From: a virus | Lineage: Duplodnaviria; Heunggongvirae; Uroviricota; Caudoviricetes | Virus record (IMG/VR): IMGVR_UViG_2512047041_000008 | Length of the DNA stretch: 56,009 nucleotides | Reading direction: 5' to 3' (one strand) | Shown: one piece after another, positions 2,980-56,009 of the stretch | How the letters are laid out: the number at the start of each line of letters is the position of its first letter | How positions within the stretch are numbered: the first letter of the stretch is position 1 | Program-made: the position numbers and the translations under genes | Notes under the pieces: model-generated | Databases searched by the model: none | What the model saw: the letters and a program-made list of their open reading frames with translations, nothing else | What the model was told of the DNA's origin: nothing

Positions 2980-3021
2980 TGAACCGCCCCGGGTTTCCTG
3001 GAGAGTGTTTTATCTGTGAAC

Positions 3022-4235: not shown

Positions 4236-4289
4236 CCTGTTTACCTCTTTCTCAGGAAGTTTAGTCTCCAGGATTCCCGGGGCGGTTCA

Positions 4290-12657: not shown

Positions 12658-12717
12658 TCGTCATGCTCCATAAACGACAAAACCGCCCGGAGGCGGTTTC
12701 ACATAAAACATTTTGCA

Positions 12718-14030: not shown

Positions 14031-14034
14031 GGGA

Positions 14035-14733: not shown

Positions 14734-15062
14734 CAGTTCACCACCTGTTCAAACTCTGCGCTGAACTCAACACGCAGCATACTGACCCGCGACGACCATT
14801 TTGCGCAGGTCACCTTTATCTGCCGCCACTCATAAGGCGGCGTCCACAGAAAGGCTTTCCAGCCCCCGTGCTCTTCCAGAAACGACTCCAGCGCCGCGGC
14901 CTCCCAACGGGGAACAGAAAGCGTCACGCTGTACGTTTTCAGGTTGGCATTCAGCCCGGCAGGCGCTCGCTGGGAATAGCCATCACCAAAGCGCACCTTT
15001 CTTACAGAAGGGGCCGAAGCCACATCCATACCGGGTTTCACTTTCCAGCGGAAGGTTTTCAT
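14733..15062 (-). CDS. M: Minor tail protein M
   Basis: 109 aa, as lambda M. Confidence 0.85.
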   Translation of the reverse strand: MKTFRWKVKPGMDVASAPSVRKVRFGDGYSQRAPAGLNANLKTYSVTLSVPRWEAAALESFLEEHGGWKAFLWTPPYEWRQIKVTCAKWSSRVSMLRVEFSAEFEQVVN

Positions 15063-20564: not shown

Positions 20565-21905
<1,341 letters not shown>

Positions 21906-32589: not shown

Positions 32590-32770
32590 CGACAGACGGC
32601 TGGCATTTAAGTATTGTGAAATATTATCAAATGTAATCATCATTGATTTACAAAAGATACATTTTGCCCCGAAAGGATTCATGTCAGAAACATCAAAAGA
32701 TGATGTTCTATACTGGGAACCATGACAACACGGGCATCTAAAGTGAATATGGTTTGTAATATTGTCTACC

Positions 32771-32983
32771 TCAAAGCGCCACTACATGAACAGCGGCAGG
32801 ACCTTTAGGTCCGTTCTCAATACCAAATTCAACTTCCTGATTCTCAGTTAATGTTTTGAAATCGTTGCTCTGAATTGCTGAGAAATGGACAAACACATCT
32901 TTGCTGCCATCTTTCGGCGTGATGAAACCAAAACCTTTTTCAGGGTTAAACCATTTCACTAAACCAGTCATTTTGTTAGACAT
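32771..32983 (-). CDS. cspI: Cold-shock protein CspI-like
   Basis: 70 aa; RNP motifs KGFGFI and VFVHF. Confidence 0.85.
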
Positions 32984-33345
32984 AATTATTACCTTTTGAA
33001 GAAATTAGCCCTTGGGCAGAATGGTCCGAAAAAAAATATCAGAGAGAAAAACCAACAAGGAAATCTCAAGAGGTACAAATAATAAAATTATAACAATGAC
33101 TGCTTCAGATAAATTTGTAACAAACCAGAACACCATTAACGCATGATTAACCACCCATAGCAAGGATTACTTTTGTAAAGAAAAACACAGCAATGAAAGA
33201 ATAGCTTTATTTATTAATAAAACGTGTCATTCTGATTAAGACCTTTTATCTTACCCTTAAGATTTCAGGAATTTTGGCTCATGGAAGAGTCCTTTTTATT
33301 TAAATTTTACATTCCGCGATGTAAATGTTCCGATTTAATATTACC

Positions 33346-35291: not shown

Positions 35292-35654
35292 TTGATTTTA
35301 TTAGTAACAAGTATTTTTTATATTTTAATAATATATTTAAAGCAGATAATAAAAAACCCGCCTGAGCGGGTTTGAGATTGTGGTGCTTTTTGTGGGAGTC
35401 ATCCACTTACGCACTTTGTTTTGCCATGCCAGCAGTTAGCTTCTGCTGTAAAACTATTCATGCAGCAAACCTGCACTTCACCACAATGGTTAGCATACTT
35501 TTCCTGATTAAGATTTTGCCAAATATGCTAGCCATTGTTTCATGTATTGGACCTCCTTACTTTTTATTAAAGAGATCCAATATTCACTACTCTGTCCGTA
35601 TCTCTACTCAGGCATCAGCCTTCTTCGTTATCGTATACAGACGAGCGATGAATT

Positions 35655-35870
35655 TTAATCAGTAATGATGACATTTGCTGCTGCAGGACCTTTAGCACCA
35701 CTCTCTATAGAGAAGGTAACCTTTTGACCTTCAAATAAGGTTCGATAATTATCATTCTGAATCGCAGAAAAATGCACAAACACATCTTTACTACCATCAA
35801 CAGGAGAAATAAAGCCGAAACCTTTATCAGCGTTAAACCATTTTACTAAACCAGTCATTTTATTTGACAT
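35655..35870 (-). CDS. cspB: Cold-shock protein CspB-like
   Basis: 71 aa with CspA-family RNP motifs. Confidence 0.85.
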
Positions 35871-36170
35871 TCTACATTCCTTAACTTGAGCCTTTCGGCA
35901 TAAATGGTTTGCATAACAGAAACGACTTCGTACTTAATTGGAGAGACTCAAAGAAGGAATAAGTGAATAACACCTGAAATGAGAACTGCTTTAGTAAACT
36001 ACTTCGTATATCGTCTGTTCTTCAAACCGACGCAATCATTAACGCATAGTTGAACATATGAAGCAATGTTTATTTTAGACATCCAGCCATCTTCAACCCC
36101 ATCAAAAAACTATAGCTTTCTTCAGGAACGTGTGTATAGTGCGCCAAGTTATCAGTATTAAGGAATTTTT

Positions 36171-39502: not shown

Positions 39503-39545
39503 TGAGGTGTACTGGCAATAGCGGACACAACCATTTGTTCTTTTT

Positions 39546-40364
39546 TTAAGCAGCCATCTGATGATATTTTTCCCTGAAGGCTGCCGGGGAGATATTCCCC
39601 AGACGAGAGTGACGACGCTGACGATTGTAGAAAATCTCAATGTATTCCCGTATTACTGAGATGGCTTCATCCCGGTTATTAAAACGATAGTGGCTCAGGC
39701 TCTCATTTTTCAGCGTTCCCCAGAAGCTTTCCATCGGAGCGTTGTCGTAACAGTTACCTTTACGCGACATTGATGTTTTCAGACCAAACTGCTCCTGTAT
39801 GACCCGGTAATCGTATGCGCAGTACTGTGAACCTCGATCAGAGTGGTGGATTAGCCCGGCAGGTGGGCGCTGGCTCCTGAGCGCCATAAACAGGGCTTTA
39901 CCTGTCAGCTCTTTTGTCATGCGCTCTCCCATGGCGTAGCCGACAATTTCGCACGTATAAACATCTTTGATGCCAGCGAGGTACAACCATCCCTCCTGTG
40001 TGGCAACATACGTCAGGTCCGCCACCCAGACCTGATTTGGTGCTGTAGGAGTGAACGTCTGGTTCAGCAGATTTGGCGCAACTGGCAGATTGTGGTTCGG
40101 GTTCGTAGTCGCTCTGAACTTGCGTTTCTGCTTACAGCGTAGCCTTAGCTCCTTACGAAGACGTGCCAGTCGGTCACGACCAACGATGATGCCATTCTCT
40201 GCCAGCTCCGTCTGGAGCCGCCGGGTTCCATATGTTTCGCGAGTGCGGATATGTGCCACCTTAATCTCCAGTTTTAGCCGCTCATCACTTTGTTTTCTGT
40301 CTGAGGGTTCATGCTGTACCCAGTTGTAATAACCGCTCCTGGATACACCAAATACCTGACACAT
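39546..40364 (-). CDS. IS600 transposase OrfB
   Basis: 272 aa DDE. Confidence 0.85.
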   Translation of the reverse strand: MCQVFGVSRSGYYNWVQHEPSDRKQSDERLKLEIKVAHIRTRETYGTRRLQTELAENGIIVGRDRLARLRKELRLRCKQKRKFRATTNPNHNLPVAPNLLNQTFTPTAPNQVWVADLTYVATQEGWLYLAGIKDVYTCEIVGYAMGERMTKELTGKALFMALRSQRPPAGLIHHSDRGSQYCAYDYRVIQEQFGLKTSMSRKGNCYDNAPMESFWGTLKNESLSHYRFNNRDEAISVIREYIEIFYNRQRRHSRLGNISPAAFREKYHQMAA

Positions 40365-40399
40365 CGCTTCAATGGGAAATTGTTGTCGCCATTGTTCGA

Positions 40400-40702
40400 T
40401 TAACGCGTATTTTTCAGCGACTCCTGTGCAAAATACGCTGTTGCTTTTTTTAATATATCTCGCTCAAGGCGAGCTTCATTTAACGCCTTACGCAGTTGCA
40501 GAATTTCAGATTCCAGTTCAGCCACCGTGCGGGAACCAGGAGTACCGAGCCCTTTTCTGGCGGCGGTAACCCATTGTCCTAAAGTGCCTTCAGGAAGAGA
40601 TAATCGGGAAGCGCCTTCGCTGATCGAAAGTTGATTTTCAAGAACCGTTCTGACAGCTTCGGCTTTGAACTCTTTAGAGTAACGTTGGTTTTTTCTGCTC
40701 AT
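40400..40702 (-). CDS. IS600 transposase OrfA
   Basis: 100 aa HTH, MSRKNQRYSKEFK... Confidence 0.85.
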   Translation of the reverse strand: MSRKNQRYSKEFKAEAVRTVLENQLSISEGASRLSLPEGTLGQWVTAARKGLGTPGSRTVAELESEILQLRKALNEARLERDILKKATAYFAQESLKNTR

Positions 40703-40766
40703 TATTAGCTCCTTCTGATGCCATTCTATTTCAGGAAGGAGTGTCCGTTAAACTCAGGCTACCTCA

Positions 40767-40784
40767 TAAGGCTTCAAGGTTCAT
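40767..40784 (-). pseudogene. quuQ: Antiterminator Q 5' end (first 6 codons, MNLEAL) upstream of the IS600 insertion
   Basis: ATG at 40782-40784 preceded by a GGAGAA ribosome-binding site; frame continues on the far side of IS600 as PKYYSPKSPKL... Confidence 0.55.
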
Positions 40785-40797
40785 GCTCGTTCTCCAC

Positions 40798-41886
40798 TTA
40801 CGCCAGTACGCCAATTGCCAGCGCGCGATCGATAAAACGAAATATCAGCTCCAGTTGGGAGCCATACTTATCTTCAAATGCCACTGTATCCGTATGCAGC
40901 TCGTTGTGATGCTTTCTGCACAAAGGCAACACAAAGAGATCATGTGCTTTTGTTCCCATTCCGCCCTGCCCGTGACCAATCAGATGATGCGGATCGTCGG
41001 CTGGCATACCGCAGCAAGCACACGGCTGTGTCTTAACCCAACGTGTGTATTTCTCCTTAACCCAGCGGCGACGTTTAGGCAGCTTCATGAAAGATTCCGG
41101 AGACTCTGGATCAACGGTGATGCTTACCACCGTCTTTTCCTGTGGTGATTTTTGTTGCTGGTGGGCGTAAGGCAACGGTGCAAGATTTTTTGTGCGTTGT
41201 TTCAATATGCTGGTGGCGGTCTGCTCTCCCGGTACGATGTCGCTTTCGCGGTACACCGAGCAGATTTTTTCCGCTGGTAATCCCAGCGAACGACGCGATA
41301 CAGCCTCAGGTAGTGCATCCACCACCTGATTGCAGACCGCCCACCAGGATAATTCAGCCAAAGATAATTCCCGCTCCTGCGTACCGCTTATTGCGTGACG
41401 GATGACGTCAATCACCCATGCTGTCAGATTTTGTTGAGCAAGCAGCTCCAGTGATTCCGATGTCTGGTCACGCAGTTGGTTGTCGCAGTGCCAGCACAAC
41501 ACCATTGCGCCGGTACCATAACGGTGAATGACTGTTTCAGTGTGATGGTAATCGCCATTAGGCCACTGGCAGGATGTAACATGACGTAATAGCCAGTCGG
41601 ACAATGCGCCAACGCCGCCAGCAGCACGAATCACCCGTTCGTTACTAAAAAACGGCAGCAATGTTTTGTCTTCCGCCAGCGGCTGGCGAACGGCAGGAAC
41701 GACTCCGGATGGCAGATTACGCATGCTTTTTGGTTCCGGTTCCACCAGCACTCGAGGATTATGAAATATCTGTATGGATTCACGGCCCGGCTTAAGGACC
41801 ACCAGCCCAAGCTCAGGCACCAGAACAGGTCTAAGTAATACCCGCACGTTACCTCCAGATCCGTTGCTGGAAAGTGCGGGACGCAC
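40798..41886 (-). CDS. ydfU: YdfU-like protein
   Basis: 362-aa ORF; true start may be internal (about 349 aa); position as in Qin. Confidence 0.7.
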   Translation of the reverse strand: MRPALSSNGSGGNVRVLLRPVLVPELGLVVLKPGRESIQIFHNPRVLVEPEPKSMRNLPSGVVPAVRQPLAEDKTLLPFFSNERVIRAAGGVGALSDWLLRHVTSCQWPNGDYHHTETVIHRYGTGAMVLCWHCDNQLRDQTSESLELLAQQNLTAWVIDVIRHAISGTQERELSLAELSWWAVCNQVVDALPEAVSRRSLGLPAEKICSVYRESDIVPGEQTATSILKQRTKNLAPLPYAHQQQKSPQEKTVVSITVDPESPESFMKLPKRRRWVKEKYTRWVKTQPCACCGMPADDPHHLIGHGQGGMGTKAHDLFVLPLCRKHHNELHTDTVAFEDKYGSQLELIFRFIDRALAIGVLA

Positions 41887-42127
41887 GTGGTGGGCGTTCG
41901 GAATAAGGCAGCCTGACAGAGATTATCCAGTGCCGATAGTCGAGACTGAGAGCTTTCTTAACCTCGAACCCGCGCCTGCGGTAAGAATGAATCAGCCATT
42001 CGGCCTGTTCTGCAGTGCATGGAGGGTGCTGGAACCATTCAGACTTGAATGCGTGAGAATACCGCCCGTGCGTGCAGGCAAGAACGGGCGAATTATCAGA
42101 ATTGTAATATTTTGCGTTGCGTGCCAT
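41849..42127 (-). CDS. rem: Rem-like protein
   Basis: 92-aa ORF positioned between ydfU and hokD. Confidence 0.6.
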   Translation of the reverse strand: MARNAKYYNSDNSPVLACTHGRYSHAFKSEWFQHPPCTAEQAEWLIHSYRRRGFEVKKALSLDYRHWIISVRLPYSERPPRASRTFQQRIWR

Positions 42128-42193
42128 CGGTTTTCTCCGGTGGCACGGTGTTACTCAGCGGGAGTTCAGCCCCGCGCAAGATTGTAGATGAGT

Positions 42194-42445
42194 TTATTCT
42201 CCTGAAAAAGCAGAAAAGCCAGCTTTTATTCCGATCTCTTTCAATGCCTGTAATGAAGTGACAAACTCACCTTCGCGCAAGATAAATCCGTCCGTGACCC
42301 GAGCATCCACAAAATTAATTAACGCAGCCCCATTCTTTCGCAAACACATAATGCGGTAATGACTAACAAGATTTCCATTTTCAACGCACACAGCATAGAG
42401 GCCATCTTCACAAAAAATTTTACGCAGTTCTTCGATGTTCATCAT
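42194..42445 (-). CDS. Hypothetical small protein
   Basis: 83-aa ORF, no recognised family. Confidence 0.4.
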   Translation of the reverse strand: MMNIEELRKIFCEDGLYAVCVENGNLVSHYRIMCLRKNGAALINFVDARVTDGFILREGEFVTSLQALKEIGIKAGFSAFSGE

Positions 42446-42661
42446 CAGAATCCTTCCGGATAATTAGCTCTCCCCTTTAAGGGACCATCCCTCTTATCCC
42501 TGCGCGCTACTTAAGTATTTTTGATTCTATTCCGGCACCGTCCAGAACTTCAAACGCGTTGAAAATAAAAACAAAAACCCGCCGAAGCGGGTTAAGTGCG
42601 GGTGCGTTGAGGATGCCTGCCACATCAGAGGTGGCGAGGGATTTCTCCCCCGCCGGGTCTC

Positions 42662-42817
42662 TTACTCCTCAGGTTCGTAAGCTGTGAAGACAGCGACCTC
42701 CGTCTGGCCGGTTCGGATTCGTACCTCGCAGAGGTCTTTCCTCGTTACCAGTGCCGTCACTATGACGGTTAAACAGATGACGATCAGGGCGATTAACATC
42801 GCCTTTTGCTGCTTCAT
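42662..42817 (-). CDS. hokD: Hok-family toxin
   Basis: 51 aa translated by hand from the minus strand, MKQQKAMLIALIVICLTVIVTALVTRKDLCEVRIRTGQTEVAVFTAYEPEE. Confidence 0.85.
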   Translation of the reverse strand: MKQQKAMLIALIVICLTVIVTALVTRKDLCEVRIRTGQTEVAVFTAYEPEE

Positions 42818-42888
42818 AGCCTGCTTCTCCTGTCAACGCAAAGCAGAAGTGTCACCTTCGGTGCGAAACAGAGATGTCATGCTTTGGT

Positions 42889-43176
42889 TCAGAGAATGCG
42901 TTTGACCGCCTCGCTATATACTTCCGAGCGTTCTCTTTTCCCAACAGAAATCACGAAAACGACAACTTTCTCGTCTATAACCTGGTATACAAGGCGATAG
43001 CCTGAAGACCGGAGCTTAATCTTGTAACAATCAGGCATACCACGGAGCTTGTTTGCTTCAATCCGGGGTGACTCAAGTACTTCAACCAGCTTCTTTTTCA
43101 ACTGTTCACGTACCGTCGAGCCCAGCTTTCGCCATTCCTTTAGTGCCCGCTCGTCAAAATCCAGAAAATACGCCAT
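42889..43176 (-). CDS. relE: RelE mRNA interferase toxin
   Basis: 95 aa, matches recalled RelE. Confidence 0.9.
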   Translation of the reverse strand: MAYFLDFDERALKEWRKLGSTVREQLKKKLVEVLESPRIEANKLRGMPDCYKIKLRSSGYRLVYQVIDEKVVVFVISVGKRERSEVYSEAVKRIL

Positions 43177-43415
43177 CAGAGTTCATCCAGCGTCACACGT
43201 ACTGGCTTAGGATTACGAAGCCGTTCTTTCACTATCTCCACAAGTTCAGCATCTTCATCACTCAGGAGTGTCTGTTTGAACGGCAAGCGTTCATTGTCAG
43301 CGATATACTCGAGCATGAGACGAAGCGCTTCAGAAGGAGTTACACCCATTTTTTCAAGCGCGGCGTAAGAACGCGCTTTAAGTTCATCGTCAATACGCAG
43401 GTTAATGCTACCCAT
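43176..43415 (-). CDS. relB: RelB antitoxin
   Basis: 79 aa, matches recalled RelB; overlaps relE start. Confidence 0.9.
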   Translation of the reverse strand: MGSINLRIDDELKARSYAALEKMGVTPSEALRLMLEYIADNERLPFKQTLLSDEDAELVEIVKERLRNPKPVRVTLDEL

Positions 43416-43419
43416 GTCT

Positions 43420-43456
43420 TACACCTCTTGTAATTACAAATGTCATTACAAGTATC
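43420..43456 (-). promoter_or_regulatory. relBE operator/promoter region (relO repeats)
   Basis: CTTGTAATGACATTTGTAATTACAAG repeats immediately upstream of the relB ATG. Confidence 0.55.
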
Positions 43457-43745
43457 GCACTACAACATGCTTAGGGCAAGTCACGAAGGAAGTCAGAAAG
43501 TAGTCGTAAGAACGGTGATCACTGTCCGCTTTGTGCCAGGAGCAGCCATTGCTAAGTCCATCCTGTATTGTGCAGGTCAGCTCGTTTTTAAAGAGTCCGG
43601 CCATCATCTTACTGGTACAGACACCATATACTTTGTGACGGTCAGGCTACATATGCACAACTCAACTTATTCATCTATTTTTTGCTTTAGCATGTCAGTG
43701 TTGCTTTCTCGTCGGCGGGTGAGCGGTGACCTGAACTGTCGATAA
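43440..43745 (+). CDS. ydfV: YdfV-like hypothetical protein
   Basis: 101-aa ORF divergent from relB, as in Qin. Confidence 0.5.
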   Translation: MSLQVSHYNMLRASHEGSQKVVVRTVITVRFVPGAAIAKSILYCAGQLVFKESGHHLTGTDTIYFVTVRLHMHNSTYSSIFCFSMSVLLSRRRVSGDLNCR

Positions 43746-43947
43746 AGGAACGTAACACGTTTTATGCAACACCCGCATGCGGCAGAAAATTATTGCCGAA
43801 CGTTTACCCCTGTCAACAAGCTTTACTTTCTGAGGCGCGCCAGCCCGCGAGGAAAACAATCTGAACATCAAACAATTAATGACACAAGAAATACGATTAA
43901 AGATTTTTTTGTGCATGCCGATAGTGCTTTTTTAAAAGGAGAAATCT

Positions 43948-44280
43948 ATGTCTGTCACAATTCAGGGAAATACCTCAACCGTTATTTCAAACAACTCCGC
44001 CCCGGAAGGAACATCAGAAATAGCCAAAATCACAAGACAAATTCAGGTGCTGACTGAAAAGCTTGGGAAAATCTCATCGGAAGAGGGGATGACGACACAG
44101 CAGAAAAAAGAAATGGCTGCATTGGTACAGAAGCAAATTGAAAGCCTCTGGGCTCAACTGGAGCAGTTGTTAAGGCAGCAGGCAGAGAAAAAGAATGAAG
44201 ACGCGACAGTTCAGCCTGATAAAAAAGAAGAGAAAAAAGACGATACAAATACCGCTGGCACCATTGATATTTACGTCTAA
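43948..44280 (+). CDS. flxA: FlxA-like protein
   Basis: 110 aa, coiled coil, KE-rich C-terminus. Confidence 0.75.
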   Translation: MSVTIQGNTSTVISNNSAPEGTSEIAKITRQIQVLTEKLGKISSEEGMTTQQKKEMAALVQKQIESLWAQLEQLLRQQAEKKNEDATVQPDKKEEKKDDTNTAGTIDIYV

Positions 44281-44323
44281 GTGAACCGCCCCGGGTTTCC
44301 TGGAGAGTGTTTTATCTGTGAAC

Positions 44324-45214
44324 TCAGGCTGCCAGATCATCGTTTCCGATGGAAGCATAATAAGCTTTTTCTGCTTCTGCCGGAGGAGTATGGCCCAGCC
44401 TTTCCAGCAATCGTCGATTGTTATACCAGTCCACCCACGTGAGTGTGGCCAGTTCCACTTCTGCACGGTTTTTCCAGCTCTTACGGTGTATTACCTCCGC
44501 TTTGTAAAGACCATTGATGCTCTCCGCCATCGCGTTGTCATACGAGTCGCCTGTACTTCCTGTTGATGCCAGTAATCCGGCTTCCTTAAGCCGCTGTGTG
44601 TAGGCCAGCGATACATACTGAGAACCTTTATCACTGTGATGGACCGTGCCGGACGGTCGACGGGCCCATAACGCCTGCTCCAGTGCATCCAGCACGAATG
44701 TCGTTTCCATGGACGATGAGACCCGCCACCCCACGATGTATCCGGCAAACACATCAATGATGAACGCCACATAGACGAAGCCCCGCCATGTGCTGACGTA
44801 AGTAAAATCAGCCACCCACAGCTGGTCAGGTCGTTCTGCCACGAACTGACGGTTTACGCGGTCGCCTGCGGCAACGGCTTTCCGGCTGATGGTCGTACGG
44901 ACCTTTTTACCCCGGAGAACACCGGCAAGTCCCATAACCGCCATGAGACGTGCCACAGTGCATCTGGCCACTCTGATACCTTCCCGTAACAACTGACGCC
45001 AGACTTTACGCACACCGTATACCTTGTGATTTTCATCGTATACGCGCTGTATCTCTTTCTTCAGCCAGTCATCGCGCTGCGCACGGGCACTGCGTTTATC
45101 CGGATGATGTCGCTGTTGCTGACAGTGGTAATACGTTGACGGGGCAATATGCAGTTCGCTGCATAGCGGTCCGACCCCGTACTGCTCACGCAGCTTATCC
45201 AGCAGTGGCATCAT
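44324..45214 (-). CDS. IS629 transposase OrfB
   Basis: Identical to the copy 1 OrfB. Confidence 0.85.
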
Positions 45215-45537
45215 TTTTTCCAGAGGCGGTCGAACTCCGCCTTCGCAAAATAAGCGGAAGCCTGGCGAAGGATATCGTTACTGCGGCGCAGTTCACGATT
45301 TTCACGTTCCAGCTCTTTCAGACGCTGACGTTCAGCGGTGGTGAGCCCTCCATCACCGCCCCCGGTATCCCGCTCATGCTGGCGAACCCAGACACGCAGA
45401 GTCTCCGGCGTACAGCCAATCTTTGGAGCAATGGAACAAATTGTCGCCCATTGTGAGTCATATTCGCTCTGACTTTCCAGAACCATACGGACTGCCCGTT
45501 GACGGACTTCGGGGGAAAAACGAGTATTTTTAGTCAT
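45211..45537 (-). CDS. IS629 transposase OrfA
   Basis: Identical to the copy 1 OrfA. Confidence 0.85.
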
Positions 45538-46029
45538 CCTGTTTACCTCTTTCTCAGGAAGTTTAGTCTCCAGGATTCCCGGGGCGGTTCAAAGTGACAG
45601 CCGTATTGTGGCCCTCATCGGGCCACTTTTCGCCATCAGCCTTTTCTTTAAAGACATATTATCTTTGTATCATTTCTGATAGTTAACATTACAAGATATA
45701 AGTAATGGACGCACTCCCAATTAGTCTATTTAAATCGCCACGAGTTTAACTGACAACCCATGATCAATTATGAATTGCAACTATTTCTGTAGTCACTTTT
45801 GTGGGGACAGTCCACAAAACTGCCAACTTCCGCTTCTTGCTCTTAGCGGACATTAGCATAGGCTATTTACCATAACGCCTCATTACGCGCACCGCCCAGA
45901 CTGACTCAGCGCGTTTCTGGCATATCCCCGGTAAAACAAGTAACAAACCACCCGAAAATGAACACCAGAAACGCGACTTAAGAATCTACCCTATGAATGG
46001 ATATGCACTCAACCGAATCGATCTTGGTT

Positions 46030-46125
46030 TCAATCTTTTTTATCGGGATCAGGCTTCTTTTTAGGTAACTTCGGGGGCTTAACTTGCTGATGACTTTGCG
46101 TTCGGCGCGTAAGCCAGGGATGGTC
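46030..46125 (-). pseudogene. C-terminal tail of a DDE transposase gene, split from its body by IS600 copy 2
   Basis: Frame continues ...YYVKPKAD-HPWLTRRTQSHQQVKPPKLPKKKPDPDKKD* after removing the IS and one GTC copy. Confidence 0.6.
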
Positions 46126-46168
46126 TGAGGTGTACTGGCAATAGCGGACACAACCATTTGTTCTTTTT

Positions 46169-46987
46169 TTAAGCAGCCATCTGATGATATTTTTCCCTGA
46201 AGGCTGCCGGGGAGATATTCCCCAGACGAGAGTGACGACGCTGACGATTGTAGAAAATCTCAATGTATTCCCGTATTACTGAGATGGCTTCATCCCGGTT
46301 ATTAAAACGATAGTGGCTCAGGCTCTCATTTTTCAGCGTTCCCCAGAAGCTTTCCATCGGAGCGTTGTCGTAACAGTTACCTTTACGCGACATTGATGTT
46401 TTCAGACCAAACTGCTCCTGTATGACCCGGTAATCGTATGCGCAGTACTGTGAACCTCGATCAGAGTGGTGGATTAGCCCGGCAGGTGGGCGCTGGCTCC
46501 TGAGCGCCATAAACAGGGCTTTACCTGTCAGCTCTTTTGTCATGCGCTCTCCCATGGCGTAGCCGACAATTTCGCACGTATAAACATCTTTGATGCCAGC
46601 GAGGTACAACCATCCCTCCTGTGTGGCAACATACGTCAGGTCCGCCACCCAGACCTGATTTGGTGCTGTAGGAGTGAACGTCTGGTTCAGCAGATTTGGC
46701 GCAACTGGCAGATTGTGGTTCGGGTTCGTAGTCGCTCTGAACTTGCGTTTCTGCTTACAGCGTAGCCTTAGCTCCTTACGAAGACGTGCCAGTCGGTCAC
46801 GACCAACGATGATGCCATTCTCTGCCAGCTCCGTCTGGAGCCGCCGGGTTCCATATGTTTCGCGAGTGCGGATATGTGCCACCTTAATCTCCAGTTTTAG
46901 CCGCTCATCACTTTGTTTTCTGTCTGAGGGTTCATGCTGTACCCAGTTGTAATAACCGCTCCTGGATACACCAAATACCTGACACAT
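46169..46987 (-). CDS. IS600 transposase OrfB
   Basis: Identical to the copy 1 OrfB. Confidence 0.85.
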   Translation of the reverse strand: MCQVFGVSRSGYYNWVQHEPSDRKQSDERLKLEIKVAHIRTRETYGTRRLQTELAENGIIVGRDRLARLRKELRLRCKQKRKFRATTNPNHNLPVAPNLLNQTFTPTAPNQVWVADLTYVATQEGWLYLAGIKDVYTCEIVGYAMGERMTKELTGKALFMALRSQRPPAGLIHHSDRGSQYCAYDYRVIQEQFGLKTSMSRKGNCYDNAPMESFWGTLKNESLSHYRFNNRDEAISVIREYIEIFYNRQRRHSRLGNISPAAFREKYHQMAA

Positions 46988-47022
46988 CGCTTCAATGGGA
47001 AATTGTTGTCGCCATTGTTCGA

Positions 47023-47325
47023 TTAACGCGTATTTTTCAGCGACTCCTGTGCAAAATACGCTGTTGCTTTTTTTAATATATCTCGCTCAAGGCGAGCTTC
47101 ATTTAACGCCTTACGCAGTTGCAGAATTTCAGATTCCAGTTCAGCCACCGTGCGGGAACCAGGAGTACCGAGCCCTTTTCTGGCGGCGGTAACCCATTGT
47201 CCTAAAGTGCCTTCAGGAAGAGATAATCGGGAAGCGCCTTCGCTGATCGAAAGTTGATTTTCAAGAACCGTTCTGACAGCTTCGGCTTTGAACTCTTTAG
47301 AGTAACGTTGGTTTTTTCTGCTCAT
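47023..47325 (-). CDS. IS600 transposase OrfA
   Basis: Identical to the copy 1 OrfA. Confidence 0.85.
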   Translation of the reverse strand: MSRKNQRYSKEFKAEAVRTVLENQLSISEGASRLSLPEGTLGQWVTAARKGLGTPGSRTVAELESEILQLRKALNEARLERDILKKATAYFAQESLKNTR

Positions 47326-47389
47326 TATTAGCTCCTTCTGATGCCATTCTATTTCAGGAAGGAGTGTCCGTTAAACTCAGGCTACCTCA

Positions 47390-48610
47390 GTCAGCTTTAG
47401 GTTTAACATAGTATTTTGAGCGTAAATCAATACGGGCATTATCCACTCGTTCATGGACACTCTTTTCATCATCCAGTGGTATAGGCTCCGGGCCATCAAC
47501 ATACTTTTCCCAGCCCAGCGCTTTCCCGTCATACAGAACGTTAATTTCACCGTCAAAGTTCTCGCATACAGTAACAACCGAATGCCTAAGTCGATATCCC
47601 CGACCCTCACTGCGTACCTGAAACGCACTGCTTTTGTACTGGAAAGTGAGATTTTTAGACAGAACGCGCTTCGCCTGTAGGCTGAAGATATAACCCAGTT
47701 CCTCTTCAGAATGGTGCACATCAAGATGAGCATTATCAGTAGTACGAGGCGACGTAGCGAACCGGTTGTTATAGGCTTCAATAAAGGTCGGCAACCATGC
47801 ATTTGCTGTTTCAATATCACTGATATTCTGAAGCCGCATTTCTTTGACCAGCCTGTCCTGTAGTGTCTGATTGGCGCGCTCTACCCGCCCTTTTGCCTGC
47901 GGGCTGTTGGCATGGATTGGCTCGATGCCCAGTGTCTTTATCGCACGAGTGAACTGGGTCAGCTCACCTTCCCGCTCTGGGTTATTTACCCTGAATATAC
48001 TGTGTCTATCAGAGTAGAGAGCGAGCGGTACGCCATGATCATTAAGGTAACCCCGGAGGGTTTCCATGTAAGCCCGGGTTGTTTCAGCAGGCACAAAACG
48101 CAACGCCATCAACGCACTGGTGGCATCATCAATGAAAACGATCAGTGTACATCTGGGGCCTCGATTTTCAAACCAGTCATGAGGTGAGCCATCAATCTGG
48201 ATCAGTTCACCGTAAGATGGTCGTCGCATGCGGCGTTGATATATACGGGCAATTTTACGACGGCGTTCACGCCATAACCCCTCTTCTATCATCCACTTTC
48301 TGAGAGTTTCAACGGATAAAGATAAACCGTGTATCTCGCGCAATTTTTCGCACGCAAACGTAGGTCCAAAATCAGCGTAACGGCCTTTGAGGAGTGAAAT
48401 TACTGTTGCTCTGAATTCAGTAGAAAAGGAATTATTAGGACGCTTTCCACGTCGGTGGGAAACCAGACCAGAAGGCCCTTCATTTCTATACCGTTGCACC
48501 AGACGTTTAACCTGCCGAATAGAAATGCCAATGCGTGCCGCAGCTTGTTCCTGAATAATCTGAAGTCGGTGGAGTTCCTTATGACTCATCGTAACAGTCT
48601 CTTTGATCAT
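47390..48610 (-). pseudogene. DDE transposase (HTH plus rve-type core; IS481/ISNCY-like, family uncertain), 3' end truncated by IS600
   Basis: 407-aa ORF with D...D...E spacing (IQIDGS, YSDRHS, RVERAN); its stop codon is formed by the IS600 terminus. Confidence 0.65.
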
Positions 48611-48944
48611 GAAAAATCCCCCAGAGAATTGTCTGGGGACATTTTAGAATGGTTCAAAGGGGACATTACAGCTTGGTGTTAACAATAGCCTGCTTCTCCG
48701 TGCCTTTCGGCACGTAAGAGGCTAACCTACATGTGTCTAGCATGAAATTGGCCTCAGATTAATGTTAAGCGTCTTGCAGGACGCGTAATGTTAACTGGGG
48801 CTTTTCTCTATCTGCCGTTGGTGTCCATGCCCGAGGCAGATAGCCTCAAGCACCCGCAGTCATTCTACTTAACTAAGATTTCCCCGCAAACCGTTTTTGT
48901 CCAGCACAGTAAATATCCAACTAAACCAATGGAGTTCGCTGTAT

Positions 48945-49163
48945 TTACCGCCAGTATTCAATGCACATGACCGCCATGAACACCCCTAAAAAAAGGGCAT
49001 TTATATATCCAAATATTAATATCAAAACATCAACTTTTTCCATATACCTTGCTGTGAAGATGATGGGCATACATGATGCGAACAACCAGAACGCAACAAA
49101 CAAAAACTGCAATGCGTTTTTCATTATTCCTCCTACAATCAATGTGCAATTACATTTAAACAC
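48945..49163 (-). CDS. Hypothetical small membrane protein
   Basis: 72-aa hydrophobic ORF; weak support. Confidence 0.3.
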   Translation of the reverse strand: MFKCNCTLIVGGIMKNALQFLFVAFWLFASCMPIIFTARYMEKVDVLILIFGYINALFLGVFMAVMCIEYWR

Positions 49164-50276
49164 ACCTCAATTTGGCCGGACATATAAATATCTAAACCAG
49201 AAAAAATCACTTACATAGCGTTACAAACTCTTTAGTCTAAAGGTTCATCGTAAAACATTCCCCATACTTATCAGTCCGTTCCGCGCCAGGTAGCTCATTG
49301 CCTTATCTGGCAACCTGTAATCAGGTTTCCGCTTTTTCAGTTGGCTGGTCGTTTAACCGACATAGTTAATCCATTAATCTAGTTGCCGGATGTTGGTGGA
49401 TTTTCGCGTTTTAGTTGTTCATAAAAGTGCACAGCTTTAACCAGTTCTTCTGATGTAACTGGGACTGGTGAGGCAGTGAATAAGGCCTGAATTTGATAGT
49501 TCGGCCTGTCGTTACAATCCTCTTTTTTCGGTACATATTTCCAGTCACCAGACCACTACTTCCCCTGAAAGTCCGTAACGCCTTTTTTCACGTAGCGATA
49601 TCGCCATGCCACTGGTTTTGCTTGCCCCGCCGTTTCATGCCCTTCCTGATAATTAATCTCGCTCATTCATCGCCCCACTCATCACAATATGCTTCGACCG
49701 GAGTTTTTCCCGCTTCATAGTCATCACGCTAGGATTCGACATCAGCAGCACTTCCACCGCGTAACTCACCATAGTCCATTAATAGTTCATCCCGCTCTTC
49801 AAAACTGATGTTATATTTAGCTGAACAAAAATCAGCCACTTTGTTCTTCCTCATCGTCTTTTATTTCGTGGTATGAGTAATTGCAGTAGTTAAAGAAAAT
49901 TTCTTATGCTCCGTCATGAATTTCCTCAGGTGTTGCGTCATCGTCCACTTCGAATACATCCTCAAAATCTCCACCAGCTATTCCCGTTTCAATAATAATT
50001 TTGAACTTTCGCATTTCACTACCGCCCTTTCGGGCGGCCTCCTGATGTTCTGAGGGTGCAGAAATCCATCCGGTTAAGGATTAAATTTTATTTACAGAAC
50101 TGAATTTAATTATTCAGATATACGTATCTGTAGCCTTACGAATCTACTCACTGGATGCCTCTTTCATAAAAATAATCCAGTGGGTTTTATCGTTTTTTCC
50201 CTGTTCGTTGACAGATAACAGGTTTTCTGTCTGTCAGTGCCAGAATCTGGCTTACCGGTATTTGCGTTTCATTCCA

Positions 50277-50633
50277 TTAAAAAATCAGAACGCCGTGCGG
50301 CCTCAACACCCGAAAGGCTTCTTTAAATCTCTGTCGCGAATCATCACGCCAGGCATCTTTATTCAGCCGTCCATATTTCTTTCCCATCCAGGCGTTATCA
50401 CCAACACTCTCAAGATGCGGAGGGTCTAATACAACCATCGAAAAAGATGCGTCTGCAAATGATAATGCACGAAAATCTGCGATAATGTCAGGGCTGATAA
50501 TCAAGCGTCTCCCATTGCGTAATGTGTATCCTTCTTTTCTGATATCGCTGAATATCGCCCGTTCGTCAGACTTATCGAACCAGAACATGCGGCTGCCACA
50601 GCACATATCAAGAATGGTTGCCGGTGCACTCAC
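50277..50633 (-). CDS. DNA methyltransferase-like protein (short, possibly truncated)
   Basis: SAM-binding-like DMCCGS and catalytic DPPH motifs; only 118 aa. Confidence 0.5.
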   Translation of the reverse strand: MSAPATILDMCCGSRMFWFDKSDERAIFSDIRKEGYTLRNGRRLIISPDIIADFRALSFADASFSMVVLDPPHLESVGDNAWMGKKYGRLNKDAWRDDSRQRFKEAFRVLRPHGVLIF

Positions 50634-51052
50634 TGCGCCACGTCCTGAAAATTACCCTGATAGAAAGCCAGTATGCGCTGCATAACTTCGCTCTTCCGGC
50701 ACTCGCGACAGATTATGTTTAGGCGACTGTCGTAGCGACGTATTTCTCCGTCAGGTGATGACCAGATAAGGTCCGGATCAACCACAGCAGGTTTCTTCAC
50801 CTTTGCCCTCGAGAGTTTTTTGCGGGCGTTTTGCCAGTCCTTACGCGCCTGTTCAGAGGGGAATAACCCGTAGCCGGAGTTGTATACATCGCCACTGGCT
50901 ACCAGCTCTCTGGCAAGAACGCTCATCAGATATCTAGTCGCACCTGTTTTAGCTTCCAGTTGCCGTAACGTCTCACGGCCGCTCTGGCGCACGAGTTCCA
51001 CCACCTGCCATTTAATTTTTTCCCGCTCTTCTTGTGTAAAAACTTTTGCCAC
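50630..51052 (-). CDS. Hypothetical phage protein downstream of the replication gene
   Basis: 140-aa ORF overlapping the methyltransferase start. Confidence 0.45.
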   Translation of the reverse strand: MAKVFTQEEREKIKWQVVELVRQSGRETLRQLEAKTGATRYLMSVLARELVASGDVYNSGYGLFPSEQARKDWQNARKKLSRAKVKKPAVVDPDLIWSSPDGEIRRYDSRLNIICRECRKSEVMQRILAFYQGNFQDVAQ

Positions 51053-51092
51053 AAGTCCCCCTTAAAATTACCTCATGACCTGAAATCAACAC

Positions 51093-52112
51093 TTATCCTC
51101 TGAAACCAGGCGGAATTTCTGTATCCGGTTCAGAAATATGATTAACACAACGCTGTACAGGTGAACGTCCCAGGCGGATGACCAGTTCGTCCCATTTTTC
51201 GCGGAGCTTTGACGGGCTCATGATGTTTTTTACCCAGAATGGATCTCGCTGAACCCGACCAAACATTTCGCAAATTTGTCTGTGGCTTCTGCCATCCAGC
51301 ATCCGCATTGTGCGCACGTCATTGGCCCAGGCAGTCCAGTTAGGCTCTTTTGGTCGCATGATCTCGCCATCATCACTGGCTGCCTGTTCGTAGAGACCCA
51401 CGATCCGCCCCCAGATCCACTGCGCACACGCCAAATCCTCCCTGCTACCCCACTGGCGTTTTTTCGCACTAAACACAACCGCGTCGGAGTTCCGGGTTAA
51501 AAAATCCTGTTCAGTCGTCTGCGGGTCCGGTTGCGAAGCTTCCGGACGAAAAGTGTTTTTATTCTCTGTAGTAATCTCTGTTGTATTCTCTGTAAGATCA
51601 TCAGGCCATTTTGACCCGATGACATTGGGTCGTTTTGAACCAATGGAGCGTTTCATTTTGACCTCTTCCATCGTGTCATTTTGACCTGATGGAGCGGCGC
51701 ATTTTGAACCGATGGATTCGCTCAATTTGCCACCATCTAAAAGCTCGCTCCCATAGTTGATCGTGTAGAAATTGGTCATATCGCGCTTTGATTTATTGAG
51801 CTTTTCACAACGCAAAAGCCCCAGCGTTTTCAGACTTGCAAACGCGCGCTTTAACGTTGACTCTGACCAGAATGGGAACTGTTCCAGCCATTGTTCCGTT
51901 GTGTTATAAATCCAGCGAACACCATCACATTCCATGCCGGAGTTGGTATCTCTCAACCAGTAGTGCAGTTGTTGCAAAACAATGGCTTCGTTTAAGCCAA
52001 TTTTCATTGCCAGCTGCGTGTTTATAACCAGTGGGCGTTCAGCAAAAAGAAGGCTCATAATTCCATCCAGCTTTTTGTTGGTATTGCTGTCGATACGCAA
52101 GTTTGAAAGCAA
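51093..52112 (-). CDS. Replication initiation protein (lambda O-like role) with internal iterons
   Basis: 339 aa; iteron array inside the gene, as for lambda ori within O; repeated IGSK peptide motifs encoded by the iterons. Confidence 0.6.
   Translation of the reverse strand: MLSNLRIDSNTNKKLDGIMSLLFAERPLVINTQLAMKIGLNEAIVLQQLHYWLRDTNSGMECDGVRWIYNTTEQWLEQFPFWSESTLKRAFASLKTLGLLRCEKLNKSKRDMTNFYTINYGSELLDGGKLSESIGSKCAAPSGQNDTMEEVKMKRSIGSKRPNVIGSKWPDDLTENTTEITTENKNTFRPEASQPDPQTTEQDFLTRNSDAVVFSAKKRQWGSREDLACAQWIWGRIVGLYEQAASDDGEIMRPKEPNWTAWANDVRTMRMLDGRSHRQICEMFGRVQRDPFWVKNIMSPSKLREKWDELVIRLGRSPVQRCVNHISEPDTEIPPGFRG
51605..51740. repeat. Putative replication origin: about 6 direct iterons (core ATTTTGA(A/C)C, period 22-24 bp) within the replication gene
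   Basis: Cores at about 51609, 51633, 51655, 51678, 51702, 51724. Confidence 0.6.
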
Positions 52113-52452
52113 TTGCTTTTTCTATAAGTTCGTCAGTTTCACGATCCACTACGGCAGGATCAGCAAAAAGCAGTCCGGACTCCACCACATCGCCATATTC
52201 TTTGTTTAACCCGGCGATCATGCACGTGATGCTTTTTCCGTCAGTAATTTCACGATACAACCTGAAATCATTAATCCGGATAGCCTCCATAATTGCAGGC
52301 ACTAGCGCCGTGAACTTTTCACGCTTATCCCTGGTGTCGATAGCCTTCCAGCGTTCAAATATCTTCACTCGATTAACGCCAAGCGCTCGCTGATCAATCG
52401 CGCCACCTTCATATGTGACACGCTGAACATCGATGTTCGGGCGCTCTTTCAA
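52039..52452 (-). CDS. Hypothetical phage protein; start lies 18 bp from the IS629-like copy 3 boundary (possibly 5'-truncated)
   Basis: 137-aa ORF overlapping the replication gene start. Confidence 0.35.
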   Translation of the reverse strand: MKERPNIDVQRVTYEGGAIDQRALGVNRVKIFERWKAIDTRDKREKFTALVPAIMEAIRINDFRLYREITDGKSITCMIAGLNKEYGDVVESGLLFADPAVVDRETDELIEKAIAFKLAYRQQYQQKAGWNYEPSFC

Positions 52453-52511
52453 AGCCCAGAATGCTTCAGTGAACCGCCCCGGGTTTCCTGGAGAGTGTTT
52501 TATCTGTGAAC

Positions 52512-53399
52512 TCAGGCTGCCAGATCATTGTTTCCGATGGAAGCATAATAAGCTTTTTCTGCTTCTGCCGGAGGAGTATGGCCCAGCCTTCCCAGTAATC
52601 GTCGATTGTTATACCAGTCCACCCACGTTAGTGTGGCCAGTTCCACTTCTGCACGGTTTTTCCAGCTCTTACGGTGTATTACCTCCGCTTTGTAAAGACC
52701 ATTGATGCTCTCAGCCATCGCGTTGTCATACGAGTCGCCTGTACTTCCTGTTGATGCCAGTAATCCGGCTTCTTTTAGTCGCTCCGTATAGGCCAGTGAC
52801 ACATACTGAGAGCCTTTATCGCTGTGATGGATGGTGCCAGACGGACGACGGGCCCACAACGCCTGCTCCAGCGCATCCAGCACGAATGTCGTTTCCATAG
52901 ACGATGAGACCCGCCACCCCACGATGTATCCAGCAAACACATCAATGATAAACGCCACATAGACGAAGCCCTGCCATGTGCTGACGTAAGTAAAATCAGC
53001 CACCCACAGCTGGTCAGGACGTTCTGCCACGAACTGACGGTTTACGCGGTCACCTGTGGCAACGGTTTTCCGGCTGACGGTAGTGCGGACCTTTTTACCC
53101 CGGAGAACACCGGCAAGTCCCATAACCGCCATGAGGCGCGCCACTGTACATCTGGCCACCCTGATTCCTTCCCGTAACAACTGACGCCAGACTTTACGCA
53201 CACCGTACACCTGATGATTTTCATCGTATACGCGCTGTATCTCTCTCTTCAGCCAGTCATCGCGCTGCGCACGGGTACAGCGTTTATCAGGATGATGCCG
53301 CTGCTGCTGACAGTGGTAATACGTTGACGGGGCAATATGCAGTTCACTGCATACAGGTCCGACCCCGTACTGCTCACGCAGCTTATCCAGCAGTGGCAT
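52512..53399 (-). CDS. IS629-like transposase OrfB (variant)
   Basis: 295 aa, DDE. Confidence 0.8.
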   Translation of the reverse strand: MPLLDKLREQYGVGPVCSELHIAPSTYYHCQQQRHHPDKRCTRAQRDDWLKREIQRVYDENHQVYGVRKVWRQLLREGIRVARCTVARLMAVMGLAGVLRGKKVRTTVSRKTVATGDRVNRQFVAERPDQLWVADFTYVSTWQGFVYVAFIIDVFAGYIVGWRVSSSMETTFVLDALEQALWARRPSGTIHHSDKGSQYVSLAYTERLKEAGLLASTGSTGDSYDNAMAESINGLYKAEVIHRKSWKNRAEVELATLTWVDWYNNRRLLGRLGHTPPAEAEKAYYASIGNNDLAA

Positions 53400-53725
53400 T
53401 ATTTTTTCCAGAGGCGGTCGAACTCCGCCTTCGCAAAATAAGCGGAAGCCTGGCGAAGGATATCGTTACTGCGGCGCAGTTCACGATTTTCACGTTCCAG
53501 CTCTTTCAGACGCTGACGTTCAGCGGTGGTGAGCCCACCATCACCGCCCCCGGTATCCCGCTCATGCTGGCGAACCCAGACACGCAGAGTCTCTGGCGTA
53601 CAGCCAGTCTTTGGAGCAATGGAACAAATTGCCGCCCATTGTGAGTCATATTCGTCCTGACTTTCCAGAACCATACGAACTGCCCGTTGACGGACTTCGG
53701 GGGAAAAACGTGTATTTTTAGTCAT
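53399..53725 (-). CDS. IS629-like transposase OrfA (variant)
   Basis: 108 aa, a few substitutions relative to copies 1 and 2. Confidence 0.8.
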
Positions 53726-53828
53726 CCTGTTTACCTCTTTCTCAGGAAGTTTAGTCTCCAGGATTCCCGGGGCGGTTCAGAACGGTCATCACGAAATCAC
53801 ATCCACCAGCAGGACGTGTGACCATCTA

Positions 53829-54371
53829 ATGATCGACCTTGAAACCATGGGAAAAAATCCTGATGCCCCGATCATCTCAATAGGTGCAATATTTTTCGAT
53901 CCGCAAACCGGAGATATGGGACCGGAATTTAGTAAGACTATCGATCTGGAAACTGCTGGCGGAGTCATTGATCGGGACACCATTAAATGGTGGCTTAAGC
54001 AATCACGCGAAGCGCAATCTGCCATTATGACCGATGAAATCCCGTTAGATGATGCACTGTTACAATTGCGAGAATTTATCGACGAAAACTCCGGTGAATT
54101 TTTTGTTCAGGTTTGGGGAAATGGAGCCAACTTCGACAACACGATTTTGCGCCGTTCATACGAACGGCAGGGGATCCCCTGCCCGTGGCGTTACTACAAC
54201 GATCGCGATGTACGCACAATCGTTGAGCTGGGGAAAGCCATAGACTTCGATGCCAGAACGGCTATTCCATTCGAAGGTGAGCGCCATAATGCACTTGATG
54301 ACGCCCGTTACCAGGCAAAATACGTTTCAGTTATCTGGCAAAAACTGATCCCGAGTCAGGCTGATTCTTAA
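53829..54371 (+). CDS. 3'-5' exonuclease, DEDD (DnaQ-like) superfamily
   Basis: Exo I-like DLETMG and Exo III-like HNALDDARY motifs; co-oriented with int. Confidence 0.7.
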   Translation: MIDLETMGKNPDAPIISIGAIFFDPQTGDMGPEFSKTIDLETAGGVIDRDTIKWWLKQSREAQSAIMTDEIPLDDALLQLREFIDENSGEFFVQVWGNGANFDNTILRRSYERQGIPCPWRYYNDRDVRTIVELGKAIDFDARTAIPFEGERHNALDDARYQAKYVSVIWQKLIPSQADS

Positions 54372-54443
54372 TGTTCAACTGTCGCCGGTTGTGACTGGTA
54401 TTCTGCAACCGGCGCTCGTCTGATGTAAGAGATAAAGAAATCG

Positions 54444-54694
54444 ATGAGCGAAGTAATCATGATTGTCTCTCCCGGCAAATGGGTATCCGAAGAGCAGTTA
54501 ATTGCGCTGAAAGGAATAAAAAAGGTACGTTAAAAAAGGCCCGGGAAAAATCGTTTATGGAAGGAAGGGAATATAAGCATGTCGCTCATGACGGTATGCC
54601 ATGGGATAACAGTCCATGCTTTTACAACCTGGAAGAAATTGATCGCTGGATTGAGCGCCAGGCATCAGCGAGACCAAGACGTCATCTTACTTGA
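54444..54694 (+). pseudogene. xis: Possible excisionase (xis) with a frameshift at an A6 run
   Basis: Frame 1 MSEVIMIVSPGKWVSEEQLIALKGIKK then frame 2 ...GTLKKAREKSFMEGREYKHV...; the GREY segment resembles lambda Xis DGREYLF; A-run at about 54519-54524. Confidence 0.35.
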
Positions 54695-54713
54695 CTAAAA
54701 ACCACACTAACTA

Positions 54714-56009
54714 ATGAGAGAAGTTGAAATGAAATATCCGACAGGCGTGGAAAACCATGGAGGGAAATTACGTATCTGGTTTGTTTATAAAGACGTAAGA
54801 GTCAGGGAAAATCTGGGGGTTCCTGACACAGCAAAAAACAGGCGCGTTGCAGGTGAACTACGCTCCTCTGTTTGTTACGCAATAAAAACTGGTGTTTTCG
54901 ACTATGCAAAACAGTTTCCCTCCTCACGCAATCTGGAAAAATTTGGTGAGGCCCGACAAGATTTAACCATAAAAGAACTGGCTGAAAAATTTCTGGCACT
55001 GAAAGAAACTGAAGTCGCCAAAACATCACTCAACACATACCGTGCCGTCATCAAAAATATCCTGAGCATAATCGGTGAAAAAAATCTTGCCTCATCGATT
55101 AATAAAGAAAAATTACTGGAGGTTCGTAAAGAGTTACTGACTGGATACCAGATCCCCAAAAGTAACTATATTGTTACACAACCAGGGAGATCGGCTGTAA
55201 CTGTAAATAATTACATGACAAATCTTAACGCCGTGTTCCAGTTTGGTGTTGATAACGGTTACCTGGCAGATAATCCGTTTAAGGGGATCTCGCCATTAAA
55301 GGAATCAAGAACCATTCCGGATCCTCTTTCGCGGGAAGAATTTATCCGTCTTATCGATGCGTGCAGAAATCAGCAAGCAAAAAATTTATGGTGTGTTTCT
55401 GTTTATACTGGAGTTCGCCCTGGTGAGCTGTGTGCACTTGGATGGGAGGACATAGATCTGAAAAATGGAACAATGATGATCAGGAGAAATTTAGCAAAAG
55501 ACCGTTTCACGGTACCAAAAACACAGGCGGGAACCAATCGGGTCATTCATCTTATTAAGCCAGCAATCGACGCTCTCCGGAGTCAGATGACATTAACGAG
55601 ACTGAGCAAAGAGCATATCATTGATGTTCACCTCAGAGAGTATGGCAGAACAGAAAAACAAAAATGCACCTTTGTTTTTCAACCTGAAGTGTCAGCGAGA
55701 GTAAAAAATTATGGTGACCATTTTACCGTTGACTCAATAAGGCAGATGTGGGACGCAGCGATAAAACGTGCCGGACTCCGCCATCGAAAATCATATCAGT
55801 CGAGACATACTTATGCCTGCTGGTCGCTGACAGCTGGTGCTAACCCGGCATTTATAGCAAACCAGATGGGCCATGCAGATGCGCAAATGGTATTTCAGGT
55901 ATACGGAAAATGGATGTCTGAAAACAATAATGCACAGGTAGCTTTGTTAAATACACAGTTAAGCGAGTTTGCCCCAACCATGCCCCATAACGAAGCAATG
56001 AAAAATTAA
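54714..56009 (+). CDS. int: Tyrosine integrase (phage integrase family)
   Basis: 431-aa ORF with C-terminal R...H-x-x-R...Y catalytic pattern; possible internal start MKYPTG; ends at the window edge. Confidence 0.85.
   Translation: MREVEMKYPTGVENHGGKLRIWFVYKDVRVRENLGVPDTAKNRRVAGELRSSVCYAIKTGVFDYAKQFPSSRNLEKFGEARQDLTIKELAEKFLALKETEVAKTSLNTYRAVIKNILSIIGEKNLASSINKEKLLEVRKELLTGYQIPKSNYIVTQPGRSAVTVNNYMTNLNAVFQFGVDNGYLADNPFKGISPLKESRTIPDPLSREEFIRLIDACRNQQAKNLWCVSVYTGVRPGELCALGWEDIDLKNGTMMIRRNLAKDRFTVPKTQAGTNRVIHLIKPAIDALRSQMTLTRLSKEHIIDVHLREYGRTEKQKCTFVFQPEVSARVKNYGDHFTVDSIRQMWDAAIKRAGLRHRKSYQSRHTYACWSLTAGANPAFIANQMGHADAQMVFQVYGKWMSENNNAQVALLNTQLSEFAPTMPHNEAMKN

Follow-up and report, generated by a model that had tools for sequence, protein, structure and literature searches.

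The closest described relatives of the locus considered here are intact phage genes for a class I S-adenosylmethionine (SAM)-dependent methyltransferase, grouped as PHROG 954 and given that name in RefSeq, in which a motif I reading LDMCCGS is followed by a motif IV reading DPPH. Intact members, close and distant, are 157-167 amino acids (aa) long. The family is 45-65% identical over its full length in phages of Streptococcus, Listeria, Enterococcus, Vibrio, Acinetobacter, Gordonia, and Porphyromonas (Listeria phage A118, Streptococcus phage T12, Vibrio phage X29, and Gordonia phage Bosnia are among the phages that carry a homolog), and its hosts span Proteobacteria, Firmicutes, Actinobacteria, and Bacteroidetes. 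One intact copy, WP_001275731.1 (164 aa), lies in a prophage of E. coli O104:H4 directly after a DUF977 gene. The same motifs and the same position after a DUF977 gene are found in IMG/VR virus record IMGVR_UViG_2512047041_000008, a sequence of 56,009 nucleotides (nt) whose whole length is called the window below, in an open reading frame (ORF) of only 118 aa at 50277..50633. Relative to PHROG 954, the window copy differs in having a stop at residue 118 of ~162, a frameshifted remainder, and replacements at eight conserved positions. We are confident that this ORF is the 5' part of a methyltransferase pseudogene and that its state reflects ordinary gene decay. The features that define the locus are as follows.

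50277..50633, minus strand: the 118-aa ORF, with a GTG start, covering the N-terminal ~73% of the enzyme (from the ORF list)
50592..50609, minus strand: motif I, DMCCGS, residues 9-14
50415..50426, minus strand: motif IV, DPPH, residues 70-73
50144..50633, minus strand: the whole methyltransferase pseudogene, 490 nt including one inserted base (from the DNA alignment)
50277..50279, minus strand: premature TAA stop in place of the AAA (Lys) or AAC (Asn) that intact copies carry as codon 119
50199..50201, minus strand: GGG run with one extra G, where intact copies have GG; +1 frameshift at codon 145
50144..50276, minus strand: untranslated remnant of the C-terminal module, WNETQIPVSQILALTDRKPVICQRTG followed by KNDKTHWIIFMKEASSE and a stop, split over two frames
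50630..51052, minus strand: upstream gene DUF977/LygF, 140 aa, apparently intact (Pfam DUF977, E = 5.1e-29)

A first-pass annotation had described the 118-aa ORF with its DMCCGS and DPPH motifs, as the ORF list bears out, and had allowed that the motifs might be spurious, which the family match argues against. The ORF (MSAPATILDMCCGSRMFWFDK...VVLDPPHLESVGD...FRVLRPHGVLIF) matches PHROG 954, “DNA methyltransferase,” with E = 6.7e-58 and 196.6 bits over profile positions 52-165 of 229, and a search of a large protein collection returned 1,630 database proteins at E ≤ 1e-3. An alignment of 15 sequences shows no variation at D9, G13, S14, D70, P71, P72, or H73, so that motif I and motif IV are genuine family motifs and no chance matches. 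A weak profile match to PH0226 (1ve3) pairs LDMCCGS with the glycine-rich LDLACGVGG and pairs the FPVVVF strand before DPPH with FDYVIF; in this match DPPH falls where strand 4 ends, the position of motif IV. The stop of DUF977/LygF overlaps the methyltransferase start (GTGA), an arrangement also seen at intact loci, and this overlap suggests translational coupling of the two genes. A promoter scan found promoter-like sites no more often than expected by chance (4 versus 5.0), and a weak terminator-like hairpin at 50311..50288 on the minus strand ends in a T-run at the stop codon of the ORF.

The first-pass annotation had also proposed that the methyltransferase was truncated and that a frameshift or a deletion should be sought. 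The truncation is real, as the intact homologs are longer and the missing C-terminus lies directly downstream of the ORF. Of the two suspected causes a frameshift is present and a deletion is not, and a nonsense change that had not been anticipated, AAA to TAA, was found in addition; these are the two point lesions of the gene. Both were mapped by DNA alignment to the intact 164-aa gene of the O104:H4 prophage and to other copies, and the lesions and the remnant are direct observations, as are the conservation pattern, population spread, and gene context described below. The ancestral gene starts with the GTG at 50633 and ends with the TAG at 50144..50146. At the nonsense site the window reads ATTTTTTAATGG where intact copies read ATTTTTAAATGG or ATTTTTAACTGG, an A-to-T substitution. 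At the frameshift site it reads ACAGGGAAAAAAC where ACA-GGAAAAAAC is found elsewhere, with a gap column in the intact O104:H4 copy and also in the O157 copy, and the inserted G brings in a second stop at codon 149. Translation past the TAA gives ...VLIF, the stop, WNETQIPVSQILALTDRKPVICQRTGKKR, and another stop; the read-through remnant is WNETQIPVSQILALTDRKPVICQRTGK, and the adjacent frame continues as GKNDKTHWIIFMKEASSE to a stop. Removal of the extra G restores a gene of 489 nt, over the final 43 codons of which the identity to the intact homolog P0010 is 38/43, and the N-terminal part has diverged to the same degree as the remnant (~87% identity). The abrupt end of the ORF is due to a TAA codon beyond which the homologous reading frame continues, homologs going on past ...VLIF with KWNETQIPV.QIL.LTD.KP.I.QRTGK.DKTHWIIF.K.

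The lengths and conservation of the homologs show what has been lost. In 244 of the 256 phage records with a homolog, the match extends over 80% or more of a 161-aa member, and by manual count ~110 of the best 150 cluster representatives (50% identity) match through profile position 150 or beyond. A profile built from 92 intact members reaches 2,460 clusters (50% identity) at E ≤ 1e-3, 316 of them at E ≤ 1e-30. Among the entries read, no natural full-length homolog of ~118 aa was found; the 118-aa forms (P0001, P0002, P0004, P0005, and P0008) all belong to this one allele lineage. The other short entries read have out-of-frame tails (P0071, P0077, and P0114), an adapter-like artifact at the end (P0055), or a stop one residue later (P0032). 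Across the 92 intact homologs few parts of the protein are as well conserved as the C-terminal tail: E122 never varies, and K119, W120, N121, T123, Q124, I125, P126, Q142-K146, D148-W152, F155, and K157 are conserved in at least 90%. It is this in-frame C-terminal module (KWNETQIP...QRTGK.DKTHW..F.K; strands 6-7) that is missing from the 118-aa ORF.

The part that remains also departs from the family. When a conserved column is defined as one at least 90% conserved, 73 such columns fall within the first 118 residues, and the ORF deviates at eight of them (H36Y, C39R, D40N, P58S, F69L, R76S, T94A, and G102R), F69 being the residue that adjoins DPPH. Among 95 full-length homologs the mean number of deviating conserved columns is 1.4 and the highest is four; of the closest intact ones, P0010 departs at one such column and P0013 and P0017 at none. 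In this alignment the replacements appear as signs of relaxed selection on the 118-aa ORF. One entry, P0008, has the same stop and the ancestral residue at most of the eight replaced positions, a pattern that fits a stop arising first and drift following afterwards, although recombination could produce a similar appearance.

To judge the consequences for the protein, we used an AlphaFold2 model built from the intact homolog P0017. The model is mediocre because the underlying alignment is shallow (mean predicted local distance difference test score, pLDDT, 64.8, with residues 1-50 below 50), and only its C-terminal two-thirds were used; there, 10-residue block means of pLDDT are 64-89 over residues 91-160 and ~64-85 over residues 121-160. 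The model puts strand 5 at residues 110-119 and follows it with a short helix (127-131) and with strands 6 (138-144) and 7 (149-156). Strands 6 and 7 form the usual antiparallel hairpin that closes the class I methyltransferase sheet. By this model, truncation at residue 118 would cost the protein some of strand 5, the hairpin that strands 6 and 7 form in the Rossmann-like fold, and the conserved QRTGK.DKTHW segment. We infer that such a fragment would be catalytically dead and unable to methylate, and it is probably unstable as well.

The two lesions are not peculiar to the window. Both are present in four separate records, namely phage record PhiR42_1 and the chromosomes of C288, NCTC11129, and RM14721. 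PhiR42_1 is 100% identical across a 2.1-kb query, and a 601-nt query is 100% identical in C288 and 98.8% identical in NCTC11129. Among 5,426 complete E. coli genomes, an exact match to the 97-nt context of the TAA lesion is found in 366 and an exact match to the 97-nt context of the extra-G lesion in 371. RefSeq annotation of this single allele is inconsistent, with C288 and RM14721 given an ordinary 118-aa protein, WP_001310834.1 (“class I SAM-dependent methyltransferase”), and NCTC11129 (locus EL113_RS11255) given a pseudogene by the Prokaryotic Genome Annotation Pipeline (PGAP), [quoted passage not shown] The pseudogene has therefore already been flagged in public annotation, and literature searches on WP_001310834 and on a Qin prophage methyltransferase pseudogene returned nothing specific. 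A prophage copy in O157:H7 has a separate TGG-to-TAG stop, and the gene family has therefore decayed more than once in E. coli prophages.

Some of these observations weigh against our interpretation of the ORF as a decaying relic. RefSeq lists the 118-aa product as an ordinary protein, and PGAP calls it in many genomes; the ORF has kept its start codon, both motifs, and the coupling overlap with the gene before it, and the fragment could still be made; and a near-identical allele in hundreds of genomes, while it fits recent common descent, is compatible with selection on the fragment. Taken at face value, they would favor a short protein that is genuine and functional, such as a fragment that binds SAM or regulates and was retained by selection after truncation. 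We consider this improbable, as the eight replacements at conserved positions, F69 and C39/D40 among them, are far more than any intact member shows, the fragment would according to the model be without two of the seven core strands, the second lesion has accumulated in a remnant that is no longer used, and both the neighbors and the upstream control region are decayed. The retention of mostly ancestral residues in P0008 behind the same stop likewise fits a stop that preceded the drift. It can be supposed that the gene is really intact and that both the stop and the frameshift arose through errors of sequencing or assembly in homopolymer runs (T6, G3/A6), and both lesions do lie in or beside short runs of this kind; this can be set aside almost entirely, as the lesions recur in four independent records (one phage and three chromosomes) and in hundreds of complete genomes, and the nonsense change is a substitution and no indel. 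Equally negligible is production of a full-length enzyme by programmed recoding, with read-through of the UAA and a +1 shift in the GGGAAAAAAC run, for although the frame-restored remnant is still close to the intact copy and the second lesion falls within a G3A6 run, two independent low-efficiency events would be required, neither feature occurs in intact relatives, direct reading of the sequence reveals no recognizable signal at either lesion and no zero-frame X_XXY_YYZ heptamer in the run, and the similarity of the remnant equals that of the N-terminal part, as expected of a young pseudogene.

The designation of the gene as a DNA methyltransferase was upheld in part: the methyltransferase family match stands, and DNA as the target is an annotation label rather than a demonstrated activity. 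Phage records call the family variously “DNA methyltransferase,” “DNA N-4 cytosine methyltransferase,” and “methyltransferase.” Neither the window ORF nor three intact homologs matched the Pfam models of classical DNA amino-methyltransferases (PF01555, PF02384, PF05063, and PF05869), and these four sequences gave only weak matches to Methyltransf_11 and Methyltransf_25 in a search that admitted hits up to E = 0.1, the window ORF barely passing Methyltransf_11 at 21.6 bits (cut-off 21.2). NCBIfam offered no usable family for the methyltransferase, sequence searches of the PDB were insignificant (best E = 0.93 with an intact homolog and 0.031 with the 92-sequence profile), and literature searches found no experimental characterization of the intact ~160-aa DPPH family. 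Methyltransferases acting on the exocyclic amino groups of nucleic acids (m6A, m4C, and m2G) typically have a motif I followed by (D/N)PP(Y/F/H), and the family shares this order with amino-methyltransferases of diverse targets, including archaeal Trm11 (tRNA m2G10), M.TaqI (DNA m6A), and the archaeal rRNA m4,2C synthase. The intact DPPH enzyme, at ~160 aa, has no recognizable target-recognition domain, and its best structural matches include Trm11. We attach very little likelihood to a more speculative proposal in two separate parts, that the 118-aa fragment is a stably expressed SAM-binding remnant that has taken on a new role in the many E. coli lineages with this allele and that the intact family may methylate a target other than DNA; if the family did so, the window allele would amount to a natural knock-out.

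The chromosome of RM14721 covers 87% of a 16-kb query (window 40000..56009) at 99.3% identity. The prophage around the pseudogene is in an advanced state of decay, as seen in the features listed below.

49835..50014, minus strand: downstream small gene 1, DUF7167 family, interrupted at codon 37 by a stop (tblastn with the intact 60-aa copy as query)
49666..49839, minus strand: downstream small gene 2, 58 aa if intact, with its ATG start changed to GTG and a Trp codon changed to a stop
49414..49666, minus strand: downstream small gene 3, 85 aa if intact, with a frameshift at codon 28
48684..48855, minus strand: sok antitoxin RNA (Rfam RF01794, 104 bits)
47387..48610, minus strand: ISNCY-family transposase ORF, just past the cut hok/mok frame
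52470..53780, no strand assigned: IS3-family element at the deletion junction (blastn against RM14721)

The stretch of about 1 kb downstream that had been noted on first pass as lacking long ORFs is real, with no ORF longer than 85 aa between the end of the transposase ORF at 48610 and the stop at 50277. It is poor in ORFs because three small genes have been inactivated, as judged against intact copies in phage vB_EcoS-640R1. On identical DNA, PGAP annotates the first of these as “DUF7167 family protein, internal stop,” and an entry reading “hypothetical protein, frameshifted; internal stop” overlaps the third (approximately window 49245..49666). Rfam detected no RNA in this stretch other than sok. 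The hok/mok reading frame belonging to this region is broken off at 48684. An intact hokD-like gene lies apart from it at 42665..42832. Elsewhere in the window, Rfam found an isrC small RNA and two cspA-type thermoregulator leaders (20724..20846, plus strand; 32744..33129, minus strand; and 35639..36031, minus strand, respectively), the leaders being presumably those of prophage cold-shock gene paralogs.

In RM14721 the genes run in the order ydfT, ydfU, rem, hokD, relE, relB, ydfV, flxA, an ISNCY element, and pseudogenes; then DUF977, an O-like gene, a YdaT-family gene, dicC, dicA, ydfABC, dicB, and ydfD; and then exonuclease, excisionase, and integrase genes followed by rspB. Judged by this gene content, the host element is a Qin-type lambdoid cryptic prophage of E. 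coli. The order YdaT-like, O-like, DUF977, methyltransferase is common to the window and to the intact O104:H4 locus, and the pseudogene sits between the O-like and DUF977 genes and the antiterminator gene ydfT. An assignment to a nin region, made on first pass, holds by position only, in that the gene lies between replication genes and an antiterminator gene; the element itself is of the Qin type.

The window also lacks the stretch corresponding to 10939..15349 of the RM14721 record, and an insertion sequence (IS) element of the IS3 family, with an ALIL pseudoknot at 53328..53444, occupies the junction. Lost with this stretch are ~29 codons at the start of the YdaT-family gene, dicC, dicA, ydfA-C, dicB, ydfD, and most of the exonuclease gene. 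As a result of this IS-associated deletion, the native control region of the leftward operon to which the pseudogene belongs is gone from this window, and the Qin remnant here is without its immunity and control region. The element at the junction is one of three copies of a ~1.31-kb IS3-family element (2977..4293, 44282..45591, and 52470..53780), each with an ALIL pseudoknot. A second IS3-family element, of 1264 bp and IS600-like by size, is present in two 100% identical copies (39503..40766 and 46126..47389; orfA 100 aa, orfB 272 aa). Both kinds of element are absent from the corresponding sites in the closest E. coli records. The IS load of the window is high, as is typical of Shigella or of IS-rich E. 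coli lineages.

We infer the following order of events. The ancestor was a phage class I SAM-dependent methyltransferase of ~162 aa with a (D/N)PP(Y/F/H) motif, which was inactivated by the AAA-to-TAA change at codon 119 and the one-base G insertion at codon 145. Translation today would yield the 118-aa fragment at most. After inactivation the remaining ORF would have drifted and the downstream neighbors decayed, and in this window the upstream control region was lost as well through the IS-associated deletion.

The biological weight of the locus itself is small, as it represents routine decay of a cryptic prophage gene. Its practical bearing is on annotation, in that surveys of methylomes or defense systems should leave the 118-aa “methyltransferase” out of their tally of active orphan methyltransferases. 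The intact family, which is widespread in temperate phages and apparently uncharacterized, is the more worthwhile subject for study.

In conclusion, comparison with known systems places this locus among familiar ones. The window allele shows no substantive difference from the RefSeq-annotated allele, and what sets the window apart is another pattern of IS elements and deletion around it. The element resembles Qin in carrying ydfT, ydfU, rem, hokD, relBE, ydfV, and flxA and in having its integrase gene beside rspB. This Qin variant keeps the replication-region genes (YdaT-like, O-like, DUF977, and methyltransferase), which the Qin prophage of K-12 is not known to carry. Like the decayed genes of E. 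coli cryptic prophages such as Qin, Rac, and e14, the methyltransferase pseudogene is found in a setting of several point-inactivated genes, IS insertions, and IS-associated deletions.
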